Shown here one piece after another: positions 30,939 to 62,870 of a stretch of 64,000 nt of DNA. How positions within the stretch are numbered: position 1 is the first letter of the stretch; every line of letters starts with the position of its first letter. The notes under the pieces are model-generated. The model did not search any database. It was not told where the DNA came from and saw only the letters and a list, made by a program, of their open reading frames with translations. The stretch lies in assembly GCF_001677475.2 (NCBI RefSeq), contig NZ_CP015229.1; one strand, 5' to 3'. The DNA comes from Escherichia coli (GTDB lineage Bacteria > Pseudomonadota > Gammaproteobacteria > Enterobacterales > Enterobacteriaceae). The translations under genes and the position numbers were made by a program.

Positions 30939-31216
30939 TATCCCCTTTCCCACAAGCAATTAATCAAAATTCCCAAAGCTGCGGGATTGTACTGCCTGGC
31001 ACAGAGGATTCAATGAGCGAAAAAAGGGATCTAGTCACTTATTGTAACTAAATACTTCTTAAATAATTAAACGCCGAAAAAATAAACACACTTTATCGAT
31101 ACACACAAAAATAATAATAAGTACAGTTATCATCGCAAAAGAGATTACTGTCACTTTCACATATTTCTGAGTTACCGTATTCTCATGGTTTCTTTTAATT
31201 TATAAGGAATACCCCT

Positions 31217-31680: not shown

Positions 31681-32283
31681 TTAGTGGTTAACGAATTCCC
31701 CATCCAGATAAACTTTGCCTTTTTCCACATGCATGACTAAACCATCCAGATAATCAGGTTTAAATGTCGCATCACGCTTATCTTTAGCAATATATGTTAG
31801 GCAATGATTATGGGTAAAAATAACGATATTTTTATCAGGTGCTTTTCTTTGTAAGTCTTTAATTGCACTATAAATCTCATTACCGCATTGAAGAAGTCGT
31901 TTATCTACCGTCAGCTTTTTACCCGCTGAAAACCAGGTCGCCGACTGAATGGTCCGGACGGTATTACTGGAATAAAGATCGAAATCAGGGATATCAGCGC
32001 TAAAAGCGTTGCCCAGTTCACGGGCATCCTGGGTACCTTTAACCGTAATACCTGTTTTATCTGACAAGCATTGATTAGTTGAACGATCGCAACGTTCAGC
32101 ATGGCGAAACAAAACGACAACCGGGTGCTGCTGTGCCAGTCTGGCCAATGTTTTATTGTCGATACGTGGCAAACCATTGCTACTCCAGGCGGCATGAGTA
32201 CCCAGTCCGGCAATTGCAGCGAGCGCCAGTAAAATGATGAAATATTTTTTTGACTTCAATGATGAGCGGCAAAAAGCTAACAC
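31681..32283 (-). CDS. ais: PmrA-regulated LPS core heptose(II)-phosphate phosphatase Ais
   Basis: GTG start giving (M)[25 protein letters not shown]..., histidine-phosphatase RHAER motif; 200 aa. Confidence 0.85.
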
Positions 32284-32475
32284 GTAAACTCCACCTATAG
32301 ACAAGCGCAACCAGACAATTACCGTGAAATTGAGCGACATTTCTGGCAATAATTAGCAGTTGGTGTAATATTAAAAATCCTACGATGTCGGCAAAATGCC
32401 TCAAATTTTTGCCAAATGCAAAGCCTAAATAAGAAAAAATATAAAAATTTCAATATTTACGTCTAATATTAGTTT

Positions 32476-32492
32476 CTTAAGGTTAAGTTAAT
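32476..32492 (+). promoter_or_regulatory. PmrA (BasR) box of the arnB promoter
   Basis: CTTAAG-gttaa-GTTAAT direct repeat with 5-bp spacer, about 80 bp upstream of the arnB start. Confidence 0.6.
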
Positions 32493-32572
32493 ATTCTATC
32501 CTTAAAATTTCGCTCCAAATGGCAAAATATACACAACACTCTTTATAGAAAATATAAGTGGACAGGTATTCA

Positions 32573-33730
32573 ATGGCGGAAGGAAAAGCAATGTCAGAAT
32601 TTTTGCCTTTTTCGCGACCAGCAATGGGCGTGGAGGAACTCGCTGCAGTTAAAGAGGTTCTCGAATCCGGTTGGATCACAACCGGTCCGAAGAATCAGGC
32701 GCTTGAACAAGCCTTTTGCCAGTTGACGGGAAATCAGCATGCCATCGCGGTCAGTTCAGCCACCGCCGGAATGCATATCACGCTAATGGCGTTGGAAATT
32801 GGCAAGAGCGATGAAGTGATTACGCCTTCCCTGACCTGGGTTTCAACCCTCAATATGATTTCCTTGTTGGGTGCAACGCCGGTAATGGTGGATGTCGACC
32901 GCGATACGCTGATGGTCACGCCTGAAGCTATCGAGTCAGCCATTACGCCACGCACTAAAGCCATCATTCCGGTGCATTATGCCGGTGCGCCAGCAGATAT
33001 TGACGCCATTCGCGCCATTGGCGAACGTTACGGCATCGCAGTTATCGAAGATGCAGCCCATGCCGTCGGTACGTATTACAAAGGGCGACATATTGGCGCA
33101 AAAGGTACCGCTATTTTTTCGTTTCACGCCATCAAAAATATTACCTGTGCGGAAGGTGGCCTGATTGTTACTGATAATGAAAATCTTGCCCGCCAGCTAC
33201 GGATGCTGAAATTTCACGGTCTGGGTGTCGATGCCTATGACAGACAAACCTGGGGCCGTGCACCGCAGGCTGAAGTCTTAACGCCGGGCTATAAGTACAA
33301 TCTGACCGATATTAACGCCGCGATTGCCCTGACACAGTTAGTCAAATTAGAGCACCTCAACACCCGTCGGCGCGAAATTGCCCTGCAATACCAGCAAGCA
33401 CTGGCAGCTCTCCCCTTTCAGCCATTAAGCCTTCCCGCCTGGCCGCACGTTCACGCCTGGCATCTGTTTATTATTCGTGTCGATGAACAACGTTGTGGTA
33501 TCAGTCGCGATGCGTTGATGGAAGCGTTAAAAGAAAGAGGCATTGGTACCGGGTTACATTTCCGCGCCGCTCACACACAAAAATATTATCGCGAGCGTTG
33601 TCCCACGCTGTCGTTACCGAATACCGAATGGAATAGCGAACGCATCTGTTCGTTGCCGCTGTTCCCGGATATGACTACCGCCGATGCCGACCGCGTCATC
33701 ACAGCCCTTCAGCAACTCGCAGGACAATAA
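32573..33730 (+). CDS. arnB: UDP-4-amino-4-deoxy-L-arabinose--oxoglutarate aminotransferase
   Basis: Start [16 protein letters not shown]; DegT/ArnB-family PLP aminotransferase. Confidence 0.95.
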
Positions 33731-34701
<971 letters not shown>

Positions 34702-34702
<1 letters not shown>

Positions 34703-36684
34703 TGAAAACCGTCGTTTTTGCCTACCACGATATGGGATGCCTCGGTATTGAAGCCCTGCTGTCTGCCGGTTACGAAATTAGCGCCATTTTTACCCATACC
34801 GATAATCCCGGTGAAAAAGCCTTTTATGGTTCGGTGGCTCGTCTGGCGGCGGAAAGAGGCATTCCGGTTTATGCGCCGGATAACGTTAATCACCCGCTGT
34901 GGGTGGAACGTATTGCCCAACTCTCACCAGAGGTGATTTTCTCTTTTTATTATCGCCATCTTATTTGCGACGAGATTTTGCAGCTCGCTCCCGCAGGTGC
35001 ATTTAATCTGCATGGTTCGCTGTTACCAAAATATCGTGGTCGCGCGCCGCTGAACTGGGTGCTGGTGAACGGTGAAACGGAAACTGGCGTTACATTGCAC
35101 CGAATGGTGAAACGTGCCGATGCCGGGGCCATTGTGGCGCAACTGCGCATTGCCATTGCGCCAGACGATATCGCTATTACGCTGCATCATAAATTGTGCC
35201 ATGCCGCGCGCCAGCTACTGGAACAGACATTACCCGCCATTAAACACGGTAATATTCTGGAAATCGCCCAGCGCGAAAACGAAGCCACCTGTTTTGGTCG
35301 CAGAACGCCGGATGACAGTTTCCTCGAATGGCATAAGCCGGCATCTGTACTGCACAACATGGTGCGTGCCGTTGCCGATCCGTGGCCGGGTGCCTTCAGC
35401 TATGTTGGCAATCAGAAATTCACCGTCTGGTCGTCGCGTGTTCATCCTCATACCAGCAAAGCACAGCCGGGGAGCGTGATTTCTGTAGCGCCACTGCTGA
35501 TTGCCTGTGGCGATGGCGCGCTGGAAATCGTCACCGGACAGGCGGGCGACGGCATTACTATGCAGGGCTCGCAATTAGCGCAGACGCTGGGCCTGGTGCA
35601 AGGTTCACGCTTGAATAGCCAGCCTGTCTGCACCGCCCGACGCCGTACCCGGGTACTCATCCTCGGGGTGAATGGCTTTATTGGCAACCATCTGACAGAA
35701 CGCCTGCTGCGCGAAGATCATTATGAAGTTTACGGTCTGGATATCGGCAGCGATGCGATAAGCCGTTTTCTGAATCATCCGCATTTTCACTTTGTCGAAG
35801 GCGATATCAGTATTCATTCCGAATGGATTGAGTATCACGTCAAAAAATGTGATGTCGTCTTGCCGCTGGTGGCGATAGCCACGCCGATTGAATATACCCG
35901 CAACCCACTGCGCGTATTTGAACTCGATTTTGAAGAGAATCTGCGCATTATCCGCTACTGCGTGAAGTACCGTAAGCGAATCATCTTCCCATCAACTTCA
36001 GAAGTTTATGGGATGTGTAGCGATAAATACTTCGATGAGGACCATTCTAATTTAATCGTCGGCCCGGTGAATAAACCACGCTGGATTTATTCGGTGTCAA
36101 AACAATTACTTGATCGGGTTATCTGGGCCTATGGCGAAAAAGAGGGTTTACAGTTCACCCTCTTCCGCCCGTTTAACTGGATGGGACCACGACTGGATAA
36201 CCTTAATGCGGCACGAATCGGCAGCTCCCGCGCTATTACGCAACTCATTCTCAATCTGGTAGAAGGTTCACCGATTAAGCTGATTGATGGCGGAAAACAA
36301 AAACGCTGCTTTACTGATATTCGCGATGGTATCGAGGCGTTATACCGCATTATCGAAAATGCGGGAAATCGCTGCGACGGCGAAATTATCAACATTGGCA
36401 ATCCTGATAACGAAGCGAGCATTGAGGAACTGGGCGAGATGCTGCTGGCGAGCTTCGAAAAACATCCGCTGCGCCATCACTTCCCACCGTTTGCGGGCTT
36501 TCGCGTTGTCGAAAGTAGCAGCTACTACGGCAAAGGATATCAGGACGTAGAGCATCGTAAACCGAGCATCCGCAATGCCCGCCGCTGCCTGGACTGGGAA
36601 CCCCAAATTGATATGCAGGAAACCATCGACGAAACGCTGGATTTCTTCCTGCGCACCGTTGATCTTACGGATAAACCATCATGA
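34702..36684 (+). CDS. arnA: Bifunctional UDP-glucuronate decarboxylase / UDP-Ara4N formyltransferase
   Basis: 660 aa; N-terminal formyltransferase and C-terminal SDR decarboxylase domains. Confidence 0.95.
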
Positions 36685-37571
36685 CCAAAGTAGGCTTACG
36701 CATTGATGTCGATACCTTTCGTGGCACCCGTGAAGGCGTGCCGCGTCTGCTGGAAATCTTGAGTAAGCATAATATTCAGGCCAGCATTTTTTTCAGCGTC
36801 GGCCCGGACAATATGGGCCGCCATCTCTGGCGACTGGTGAAGCCACAGTTTTTGTGGAAGATGCTGCGCTCAAACGCGGCATCGCTTTATGGCTGGGATA
36901 TTTTACTGGCAGGTACGGCCTGGCCGGGTAAAGAGATTGGTCATGCCAATGCCGATATCATTCGTGAAGCAGCTAAACATCACGAAGTCGGCCTGCACGC
37001 CTGGGATCACCATGCCTGGCAAGCCCATAGCGGTAACTGGGATCGGCAAACATTGGTCGACGATATTGCACGCGGCCTTCGCACTCTGGAAGAGATTATC
37101 GGTCAACCGGTAACCTGTTCTGCCGCTGCGGGCTGGCGTGCCGACCAGCAGGTGATCGAAGCAAAAGAAGCGTTCCATTTGCGCTACAACAGCGATTGTC
37201 GTGGGGCCATGCCGTTTCGGCCACTGCTCGAATCAGGAAACCCTGGCACTGCGCAAATTCCGGTGACCTTACCCACCTGGGATGAAGTGATTGGTCGGGA
37301 TGTGAAAGCAGAAGATTTTAACGGTTGGTTACTCAACCGCATCCTGCGAGATAAAGGCACGCCGGTTTATACCATTCATGCCGAAGTTGAAGGCTGCGCT
37401 TATCAGCATAATTTTGTGGATCTCCTGAAACGCGCAGCCCAGGAAGGCGTGACATTTTGCCCTTTAAGCGAACTGTTATCAGGGACGTTGCCGCTCGGAC
37501 AAGTTGTTCGCGGAAATATTGCCGGACGTGAAGGCTGGCTGGGTTGCCAACAAATTGCGGGTAGTCGCTGA
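36681..37571 (+). CDS. arnD: 4-deoxy-4-formamido-L-arabinose-phosphoundecaprenol deformylase
   Basis: 296-aa polysaccharide-deacetylase-fold ORF, overlapping the arnA stop. Confidence 0.93.
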
Positions 37572-39223
37572 TGAAATCGGTACGTTACCTTATCGGCCTC
37601 TTCGCGTTTATTGCCTGCTATTACCTGTTACCGATCAGCACGCGTCTGCTATGGCAACCCGATGAAACGCGTTATGCGGAAATCAGTCGGGAAATGCTGG
37701 CATCCGGCGACTGGATTGTGCCCCATCTGTTAGGGCTACGTTATTTTGAAAAACCCATTGCCGGATACTGGATTAACAGCATTGGGCAATGGCTATTTGG
37801 CGCGAATAACTTTGGTGTGCGGGCAGGCGTTATCTTTGCGACCCTGTTAACTGCCGCGCTGGTGACCTGGTTTACTCTGCGCTTATGGCGCGATAAACGT
37901 CTGGCTCTACTCGCCGCAGTGATTTATCTCTCATTGTTTATTGTCTATGCCATCGGCACTTATGCCGTGCTCGATCCGTTTATTGCATTCTGGCTGGTGG
38001 CGGGAATGTGCAGCTTCTGGCTGGCAATGCAGGCACAGACGTGGAAAGGCAAAAGCGCGGGATTTTTACTGCTGGGAATCACTTGCGGCATGGGGGTGAT
38101 GACCAAAGGTTTTCTCGCCCTTGCCGTGCCGGTATTAAGCGTGCTTCCATGGGTTGCATCGCAAAAACGCTGGAAAGATCTCTTTATTTACGGCTGGCTG
38201 GCGGTTATCAGTTGCGTACTGACGGTTCTCCCCTGGGGACTGGCGATAGCGCAGCGGGAGCCTGACTTCTGGCACTATTTTTTCTGGGTTGAGCATATTC
38301 AACGCTTTGCAATGGATGATGCTCAGCATAGAGCTCCGTTCTGGTACTACTTGCCGGTCATCATTGCCGGTAGCCTGCCGTGGCTGGGATTACTCCCCGG
38401 AGCACTGTACGCAGGCTGGAAAAACCGCAAGCATTCCGCAACCGTCTATTTGTTGAGCTGGACGATAATGCCGCTGCTGTTTTTCTCCGTCGCTAAAGGC
38501 AAATTGCCCACCTATATTCTTTCCTGCTTTGCACCTCTGGCAATGCTGATGGCGCATTACGCTTTGCTGGCAGCAAAAAATAATCCTCTGGCGCTGCGGA
38601 TTAATGGCTGGATTAACATCGCTTTTGGTGTCACTGGCATTATTGCCACATTTGTGGTCTCCCCATGGGGACCAATGAACACGCCAGTGTGGCAAACCTT
38701 CGAGAGCTATAAAGTCTTTTGTGCCTGGTCGATTTTTTCGCTATGGGCATTTTTCGGCTGGTACACCTTAACAAACGTCGAAAAGACCTGGTCTTTTGCC
38801 GCGCTTTGCCCGCTGGGGCTGGCGTTGCTGGTAGGATTTTCAATTCCTGACAGAGTCATGGAAGGAAAACATCCGCAATTTTTTGTCGAGATGACACAAG
38901 AATCACTTCAGCCAAGCCGCTATATTCTTACTGATAGCGTCGGTGTTGCCGCAGGTCTGGCATGGAGCCTGCAACGCGATGACATCATCATGTATCGCCA
39001 GACAGGTGAGTTGAAATACGGCCTTAATTATCCGGATGCGAAAGGGAGATTTGTCAGCGGTGATGAGTTCGCAAACTGGCTTAATCAACATCGTCAGGAG
39101 GGGATTATTACACTCGTGCTTTCGGTTGACCGCGATGAAGATATCAACAGTCTCGCCATTCCGCCCGCAGATGCCATCGATCGTCAGGAGCGTCTGGTGC
39201 TGATTCAGTATCGGCCCAAATGA
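37571..39223 (+). CDS. arnT: Undecaprenyl-phosphate-alpha-L-Ara4N : lipid A arabinosyltransferase
   Basis: 550-aa polytopic GT-C membrane protein. Confidence 0.95.
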
Positions 39224-39555
39224 TCTGGCTAACATTAGTCTTTGCCAGCTTGCTTAGCGTTGCCGGGCAGTTGTGTCAGAAACAAGCAACCTGCTTTGTG
39301 GCGATAAACAAACGGCGCAAACATATCGTGCTGTGGCTGGGACTGGCGCTGGCTTGTCTTGGTCTTGCCATGGTGCTCTGGCTGCTGGTCTTGCAGAACG
39401 TACCGGTAGGCATTGCCTACCCGATGTTAAGTCTGAATTTTGTCTGGGTGACGCTGGCTGCAGTAAAACTGTGGCACGAGCCGGTATCACTGCGTCACTG
39501 GTGTGGGGTGGCATTCATTATTGGCGGCATTGTGATCCTCGGGAGTACGGTGTAA
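39220..39555 (+). CDS. arnE: Undecaprenyl-phosphate-Ara4N flippase subunit ArnE
   Basis: 111-aa four-TM small-multidrug-resistance-like protein; overlaps the arnT stop. Confidence 0.9.
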
Positions 39556-39941
39556 TGGGCCTGATGTGGGGATTATTCAGCGTCATTATTGCCTCAGCTG
39601 CGCAATTAAGCCTGGGTTATGCGGCGAGTCATCTACCGCCGATGACGCACTTATGGGATTTTATCGCGGCGCTGTTAGCTTTTGGCCTGGATGCCCGGAT
39701 ACTGTTACTCGGGCTGCTGGGTTATCTGCTTTCCGTTTTTTGTTGGTATAAAACGCTACATAAACTTGCGTTAAGCAAAGCCTATGCCTTGCTCAGTATG
39801 AGCTATGTGCTGGTATGGATTGCATCAATGATACTTCCCGGCTGGGAAGGAACTTTTTCGCTGAAGGCACTACTGGGAGTTGCTTGTATTATGAGCGGGT
39901 TGATGTTGATTTTCCTGCCCACGACAAAACAACGTTACTGA
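39555..39941 (+). CDS. arnF: Undecaprenyl-phosphate-Ara4N flippase subunit ArnF
   Basis: 128 aa from ATG 39555 (TAATG overlap with arnE); [28 protein letters not shown]... Confidence 0.9.
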
Positions 39942-40201
39942 GTTTTCCCTGCCGCTGTACACTGCCGTTCCCACTCATCGGGGCTATAACTGCTTGCCGA
40001 GAGGACTTTAACCGTATGCAGCTTTTCACGATTAATACAGTAAAGGGCATTCTGCAAAGGCGAGAGTAAATCCCCCACTTTCACGGCGAAGTCACTCTTC
40101 ACTTCGGCGATCATTTTTATCGCGCCGCCAGCATCGCAGAGCATAAGTACATGTCTGTTATCTTGTTTATTGCAGCACGATTTTTTGACCAGCCATTCCA
40201 T
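39935..40201 (-). CDS. pmrD: Signal-transduction connector protein PmrD
   Basis: Start [30 protein letters not shown]...; 88 aa. Confidence 0.85.
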
Positions 40202-40310: not shown

Positions 40311-41666
40311 TTATTGCTGGCGTTGCACCCACTCTTTTAGCGCCTGACGTGAAATTTTAATACCACCGTTTTTCAGTTCAGGTGGAAGCGTCAGCCAACG
40401 CACCGGTTGTTGAAAACGGGCCAGCTTATCTTTCACCCATTCGCCAAGATCAACGGTTTGCTGGTCATACTCCACCACCGCTACCGGTCGATGACCAAAC
40501 TCCTTGTCGGCAACGGGAACGATAAACACCTGCAAAACCGCAGGATGTGCAGCAATAACGCGCTCGACTTCTTCTGGCTGAATGCCTTCGCCACCACTGA
40601 AGAACAGATTGTCTAAACGTCCGACAATGGTCAGCTTGCCATTATGCATCTCACCGCGATCGCGCGTGGCGTACCAGCCTTCGTCATTAACCAGTGGAAC
40701 CAGTTGCCCGTTACGCCAGTAACCTTCTGCCATGCTGGCAGCCCGCAGCCACACTTCGTCGTTTACGATTTTCACTTCCCGACCCGGCAGCGGCGAACCG
40801 ACGTCTGCCAGACCGTCGGCTTCTTTCGCACACACCGTGGAGGCAAACTCGGTCAGACCATAGCCGCAAAAGCAACGAATCCCCTGCTCGCGCGCCTGTT
40901 CCGTCAACTCGACCGGAATTGCCGCACCGCCAAGTAACACCGCTTTCAGGGAAACGGAACTGCGGTTAACCAGCAAACGCCAGAGTTGTGTTGGCACCAG
41001 TGAAGCGTGAGTACAGCCTGCCAGCATTTGCTCCAATGGCTGTTTATCACGTACCGTCATCCGCGCACCAGCGTATAACCAGCGCCACATAATTCCCTGA
41101 CCGGAGACGTGAAACAGCGGTAAAGAGAGCAACCAGTCATCGTGCTCGCCAAACGGTATCAGCGATAACACACCTTGCGCACTGGCAAGATGGGCCTGAT
41201 AAGTATGAACAGCGGCTTTCGGCAAACCGGTAGAGCCGGAGGTCAACGTCATTGAGCACAGACGCGTCGGCTGCCACGCAGCGGCATGTGCGCCTTCAAC
41301 CAGCTGAATGTGCAGCGACGTTAACGCCGGAAACGTGTTTTCCCCATCCGGCACCAGCGCAAATTGCAGCGTCAGATTGGGCAGCAATTCTTCAAGCAAC
41401 GGTTGCGGCAGCTGAGGGTTCACGGGCAACACCCGCGCCCCGCATTGCAGTAACGCCAGCCAGGCGAGCAGCGTTTGCGGCGTATTCCACGCCCGCAACA
41501 TCACGCCGCTGCCCTCAACCACACCCTGCGCCGCAAAGCCGGAGGCTAATTCATCGACGCGAGCACAAAGCTCGCGCCAGTTGAGTTGCTCGTCATTAAG
41601 ACGTAAGGCGATGGCTTCTCCCCGCACTTGCCGCCAGTGACGCCACGGCCAGTCAGAGAAGATCAT
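40311..41666 (-). CDS. menE: o-Succinylbenzoate--CoA ligase
   Basis: 451-aa adenylate-forming enzyme with TSGSTGLPK motif. Confidence 0.93.
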
Positions 41667-62824: not shown

Positions 62825-62870
62825 GCTTCCAGTTTTCTCAGTCAGAGACTGAGCGTTAATCGAAATTCGG

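Follow-up and report, generated by a model that had tools for sequence, protein, structure and literature searches.

A near-canonical PmrA/BasR box with the geometry of a class II activator site upstream of arnB in Escherichia coli

Results and discussion

A PmrA/BasR box in the ais-arnB spacer

The spacer between the divergent genes ais and arnB of Escherichia coli contains a site, CTTAAGGTTAAGTTAAT at positions 32476-32492 on the plus strand, with every sequence-level property of a class II activator site of PmrA/BasR for arnB. Positions are those of the 64,000-nucleotide stretch of contig NZ_CP015229.1 (assembly GCF_001677475.2) that was analysed as a whole, hereafter the window. We hold it to be very probable that this box is the PmrA/BasR class II activator site of arnB, where binding of phosphorylated BasR and the resulting activation are read across from homologous systems and from the literature. 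The initial annotation, made from the letters of the window alone, had located a PmrA box at exactly this place and on this strand, and our sequence check returned the same coordinates. The box is real, correctly placed and was correctly interpreted. It is also already known, because an earlier study assigned this exact 17-mer to PmrA in the E. coli arn promoter, that of an EPEC strain, and called it a PmrA consensus "with a slight modification" (PMC10729948).

The site is made up of two TTAA-containing hexamers with 11-bp periodicity, half-site 1 being CTTAAG (32476-32481) and half-site 2 being GTTAAT (32487-32492), with GTTAA between them. When the 17-mer was compared with the consensus YTTAAK-N5-YTTAAK, 11 of the 12 specified positions matched, the mismatch being the G, in place of Y, with which half-site 2 begins. 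The box had been called canonical; its presence stands, and with one mismatch near-canonical is the better word. This single departure falls inside the range found among orthologous boxes. Both half-sites contain TTAA and with it the TAA core of a PmrA box; in the solved complex, the TAA core bases are contacted by N188 and T187 of PmrA (PMC10570014).

Standing against chance, and conservation

Counting matches to the consensus proved uninformative as a test of the site, since four matches with at most one mismatch were observed in the 64-kb window against 3.27 expected, which is no better than chance. Counting was replaced by a PWM scan and by phylogenetic footprinting. The PWM was trained on 31 distinct boxes upstream of arnB in other genera, with Escherichia and the closest Citrobacter left out. 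Such a scan had been proposed in the initial annotation as a check, and it gave the arnB box the highest score in the window, 19.3 bits, ranking first of approximately 128,000 positions on both strands (runner-up, 11.6 bits). None of 30 first-order Markov randomisations reached 19.3 bits.

The comparison of orthologous loci covered 79 arnB upstream regions from other Enterobacterales, one genome per species. In 60 of the 79, the 300 nt upstream of arnB held a plus-strand box with no more than one mismatch, where shuffled sequences would be expected to give 3.8; the same regions held 17 minus-strand boxes, mostly the same site read backwards. Across the orthologues the 5' half-site is near-invariant, CTTAA[GT], and the 3' half-site is degenerate (CCTAAG, GTTAAT, ATTAAC, TTTAAT), a pattern that mirrors the strong and weak half-site affinities measured for PmrA of Klebsiella pneumoniae (PMC3973317). 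In nearly every genus a TAnnnT hexamer lies exactly 10 nt past the box. The site is above chance by its PWM score, by its conservation among orthologues and by the fixed -10 hexamer, not by the consensus count.

Within the species, of 5426 complete E. coli genomes, 5418 gave a match to a 501-bp query around the box, with 95-99.4% identity and with ais and arnB annotated at the matching place. The 49-bp core (32470-32518) was found in 5412 of these 5426 genomes and was identical in 3193. In three variants of the core that were sampled, the changes lay at 32511 or 32516, or the sequence was interrupted just upstream, and the box itself was unchanged.

A separate observation was made in E. coli EC5931 (NZ_CP104592.1), a blood isolate, in which an IS1 element sits in the PmrA box at the equivalent of 32476-32484 and has duplicated 9 bp of the target, CTTAAGGTT. 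Next to arnB the box is still complete in this isolate; the ais side retains half-site 1 only, about 0.8 kb from the full box. Elsewhere in the window, the spacer between yfaZ and nudI carries TTTAAGAAGTATTTAGT (31047-31065, minus strand, which is the yfaZ strand), a match to the PmrA consensus with one mismatch and to the PhoP consensus with two, with a poor PWM score.

The arnB promoter and its start site

Primary transcription start sites of E. coli K-12 have been published from Cappable-seq data processed with TSSpredator, at 2365854 (+) for arnB and 2365723 (-) for ais (PMC12987492, Table 1). We aligned NC_000913.3 to the window, which placed these two sites at 32517 and 32386, respectively. 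The initial annotation had predicted a start about 35 bp downstream of the box, and the published arnB start, the A at 32517 on the plus strand, agrees with it: relative to this base the box spans -41 to -25, with its centre at -33, which is the position of a -35 element. The -10 hexamer TAAAAT (32503-32508, plus strand) begins 10 bp past the box; a TAnnnT hexamer at this distance recurs across genera, and the ugd promoter has the same geometry. The start falls 8 nt past the hexamer, slightly long against the usual 6-7 nt; bases 32515-32516 are C, and 32517 is the first purine. It should be kept in mind that this start site was taken from antibiotic-treated cells, not from cells under Fe3+ induction. 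In the re-analysed Cappable-seq data, the arnB, ugd and ais start sites were induced in all three antibiotic treatments (PMC12987492). K-12 and the window differ at five intergenic positions (32336, 32348, 32355, 32406 and 32549), none of which falls in the box, the -10 hexamer or the start site.

A generic sigma-70 scan detected no full arnB promoter and no match to a -35 hexamer there, which is the result that a promoter dependent on an activator should give. From the start site and the start codon we derived a 5' untranslated leader of 74 nt (32517-32590, plus strand), in which AAGGA at 32580-32584 is the Shine-Dalgarno sequence. The leader folded no better than shuffled sequence (z = 0.22) and no Rfam family matched it. 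The only Rfam match at gathering threshold anywhere in the window was the nuoG RNA cis-regulatory element, at 62826-62868 on the minus strand (50.3 bits).

The whole spacer, 32284-32590, was searched for a PhoP box (KGTTTA-N5-KGTTTA) with up to two mismatches and none was found, in agreement with the published view that direct control by PhoP was lost in Escherichia and Salmonella (PMC2565834). In the window as a whole, the best PhoP-box-like match is GGTTTTGCAGGTGTTTA (40523-40539, minus strand, one mismatch), which lies inside the 3' part of menE, on the same strand as pmrD and approximately 320 nt upstream of the start codon of that gene; matches with at most two mismatches numbered 23 window-wide against 14.1 expected. 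The spacer is AT-rich, with 32% G+C compared with 51% for the window, and it has been listed among the H-NS-bound "promoter islands" (PMC3661553).

The limits of this spacer depend on which start codons are used. RefSeq starts place the intergenic region at 32284-32590, and the narrower interval of 32350-32572 given at first came from the longest open reading frames. An in-frame ATG at 32573 yields the 385-aa arnB annotated in K-12, and PGAP genomes start at 32591 (379 aa). Several Citrobacter species have a stop codon immediately behind the upstream ATG (ATG GCT TGA), and the NCBIfam arnB profile starts at the downstream methionine. The Citrobacter stop codon and the profile start favour 32591 as the probable start of arnB.

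An intact polymyxin-resistance module

The window is a piece of the E. coli chromosome, with the gene order glpTQ/glpABC, yfaY, yfaZ, nudI, ais, arnBCADTEF, pmrD and menE-C-B-H-D. The gene ais (also pmrG; 31681-32283, minus strand, 200 aa, GTG start) is divergent from arnB (32591-33730, 379 aa), whose product matches NCBIfam PRK11658 with 734 bits, residues 1-378 aligning to profile positions 1-378 of 379. On the plus strand there follow arnC (33734-34702), 3 nt past the arnB stop codon; arnA (34702-36684), with a 1-nt overlap with arnC (TAATG); arnD (36681-37571), overlapping arnA by 4 nt (ATGA); arnT (37571-39223), overlapping arnD by 1 nt; arnE (39220-39555), overlapping arnT by 4 nt; and arnF (39555-39941), overlapping arnE by 1 nt. 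The gene pmrD (39935-40201, minus strand, 88 aa) is convergent with arnF, and their 3' ends overlap by 7 bp (39935-39941).

The initial annotation had described the module ais, arnBCADTEF and pmrD as intact, with ais on the opposite strand and pmrD downstream, and this is borne out. All nine products score above the NCBIfam curated cut-offs with end-to-end coverage of their profiles, in the order of annotated E. coli, and because of this we regard the module as intact at the sequence level. The accompanying statement that all arn genes overlap by 1-4 bp needs correcting, as the arnB/arnC junction is a 3-nt gap (TAA-GCC-ATG) and overlaps (1, 4, 1, 4 and 1 nt) are found at only five of the six junctions. 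A gap of 1-9 nt, usually 1-5 nt, separates arnB from arnC in 74 of 80 other Enterobacterales, and an overlap of 4 or 1 nt joins arnC to arnA in 79 of the 80. Such conserved tight packing is compatible with translational coupling of the arn genes, which would itself be a further step from the gene coordinates.

Does the box also serve ais?

The ais start site at 32386 on the minus strand, from K-12 position 2365723 (PMC12987492), has a core promoter of its own, spanning 32386-32422, with a -10 hexamer CATTTT (32398-32393) and a -35 hexamer TTGCAT (32421-32416) separated by a 17-bp spacer. When the spacers of Escherichia, Salmonella and Citrobacter are aligned, the block 32393-32422 forms the second island of conservation; ais adjoins arnB in these genera only. 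Another minus-strand sigma-70 candidate, TAGACG-16-TATATT (32465-32438), was set aside as it does not fit the start at 32386. The ais 5' leader folded no better than shuffles (z = 1.23).

There is no separate PmrA box for ais with up to two mismatches within 60 bp of its start, and the only box available to it is that of arnB, read backwards at -106 to -90 of the ais start. A single PmrA box might drive both genes, from the -35 position in the case of arnB and, for ais, from about -98 in E. coli or about -88 in Salmonella and some Citrobacter, with the same face of the helix kept by selection. Such a bidirectional box, class II for arnB and a distal upstream site for ais in constant helical phase, would be compatible with our preferred reading of the site as the arnB activator site, but we regard it as a tentative idea and rather doubtful.

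What first speaks for sharing is that ais is activated by PmrA (PMC3140997, PMC10962826) and co-induced with arnB (PMC12987492), and that its start has conserved -35 and -10 hexamers but no box between -60 and -20. The spacing adds to this. Counted from the invariant AAAATGCC, which marks the ais -10 region, the box starts at a distance of exactly 83 bp in E. coli, E. albertii and Citrobacter sp. R56, and of exactly 73 bp in Salmonella, in C. amalonaticus-like genomes and in one further Citrobacter-like contig; these spacings were read at ten loci, over the equivalent of window positions 32393-32492. The difference corresponds to one helical turn. Only these two spacings occurred, despite a spacer sequence that is poorly conserved and a metagenome scan that allowed anything from 63 to 93 bp between the ais -10 block and the box, which weakly suggests a shared box under a constraint of phase.

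The loci nevertheless come from no more than about five lineages and may reflect just one or two indel events. Moreover, few lengths (115, 124 and 125) are also seen for the arnB leader at these loci, and the 10-bp difference may thus be due to chance. A site at -98 is also far for direct contact with the polymerase. Finally, binding of PmrA at the Salmonella pmrG promoter may already have been described.

Activation by PmrA versus a QseB site

In a published model (PMC10729948) the element is mainly a QseB site: bound PmrA blocks RNA polymerase, and expression of arn requires both the absence of PmrA and activated QseB. A 60-bp probe that differs by one base from window positions 32455-32514 was shifted by phosphorylated QseB, and arnB was over-expressed in a pmrA qseC double mutant (PMC10729948). 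Our search of the 60-bp EMSA probe for the published QseB consensus returned nothing better than 3-4 mismatches. The best match in the spacer is GCAATAATTAGCAGTT (32346-32361, plus strand, one mismatch), located in the ais 5' leader. As this match is outside the probe, the shift may have occurred on the PmrA box itself; it may reflect recognition of that box by QseB, which is a paralogue of PmrA. The shift, however, took 3 ug of protein, with QseB the sole regulator assayed on that DNA (PMC10729948).

The architecture of the promoter is harder to reconcile with this model. A -35 hexamer is missing from the arnB promoter, and the box occupies exactly the position used by the class II activators of the family, a geometry which it has in common with ugd and with the structurally solved activation complex of K. 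pneumoniae. Fe3+, in addition, induces arnB in E. coli through PmrA/PmrB (PMC3140997, PMC10962826). The geometry points to PmrA as an activator here rather than a repressor, and we judge the QseB model improbable as an account of this element.

That the box is a chance match without specific function, as might be supposed of an AT-rich, H-NS-bound spacer in a window where consensus matches with at most one mismatch occur at chance level, is scarcely credible, given its first rank by PWM, its start site at the expected distance and its fixed distance from the -10 hexamer in dozens of genera whose flanking sequences cannot be aligned.

Proposed regulation and significance

We return to the box as the very probable PmrA/BasR activator site of arnB. 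By analogy with the solved K. pneumoniae system, phosphorylated BasR/PmrA would bind 32476-32492 and activate transcription. In this scheme PmrB would sense Fe3+, Zn2+ or mild acid and phosphorylate PmrA, and in some backgrounds PmrD, induced by PhoP, may protect phosphorylated PmrA. A PmrA dimer would then bind the two TTAA-containing half-sites head-to-tail and contact sigma-70 RNA polymerase, which would use the TAAAAT hexamer 10 bp downstream. Transcription would proceed from 32517 through arnBCADTEF, presumably as one tightly packed unit. In E. coli, induction of arnB, eptA and ais by Fe3+ via PmrA/PmrB has been reported (PMC3140997, PMC10962826).

Lipid A is modified with aminoarabinose through the arn operon, the main chromosomal route to polymyxin and colistin resistance. 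The PmrA-dependent arn promoter is textbook material and its confirmation here adds nothing new. The practical value lies in an annotation anchor, with the box at 32476-32492, the -10 hexamer at 32503-32508 and the start at 32517, and in a reference against which promoter variants with a possible effect on colistin susceptibility, for example the IS1 insertion of one clinical isolate, can be recognised.

Comparison with known systems

The closest relative of the site is the BasR-dependent promoter of arnB (also pmrH, pbgP or yfbE) in E. coli K-12, which is the same locus: the box, the -10 hexamer and the start-site region are identical, and the two sequences are separated by strain-level SNPs only, at approximately 98% identity over 1.5 kb.

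In K. pneumoniae, PmrA box1 of the pbgP promoter, CTTAATATTATCCTAAG, is orthologous in position, upstream of arnB, and the K. pneumoniae orthologue among the upstream regions that we compared indeed carries it. This box has been footprinted (PMC2565834) and solved together with PmrA and RNA polymerase (PMC10570014); a crystal structure (4S05) and a cryo-EM activation complex are available for it. It likewise consists of two hexamers with 5 bp between them, the 5' half-site being strong and the 3' one weaker, and replaces the -35 element, although the letters of its half-sites differ from the CTTAAG and GTTAAT of E. coli. The Klebsiella box lies about 171 nt from the start codon and is followed by a second, PhoP-dependent proximal promoter (PMC2565834), whereas the E. 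coli spacer holds no PhoP box at up to two mismatches.

The E. coli ugd promoter belongs to the same regulon and has the same geometry of box, 10 bp and -10 hexamer, here TATTCT. Its box is a perfect consensus, CTTAATATTAACTTAAT, at -39 to -23, compared with one mismatch and -41 to -25 for arnB. More distantly, the pho box of PhoB and other class II sites of the OmpR/PhoB family are also direct repeats with an 11-bp period that lie about 10 bp upstream of the -10 hexamer and replace the -35 element (PMC10570014); their recognition sequences and regulators differ from those of the arnB box.
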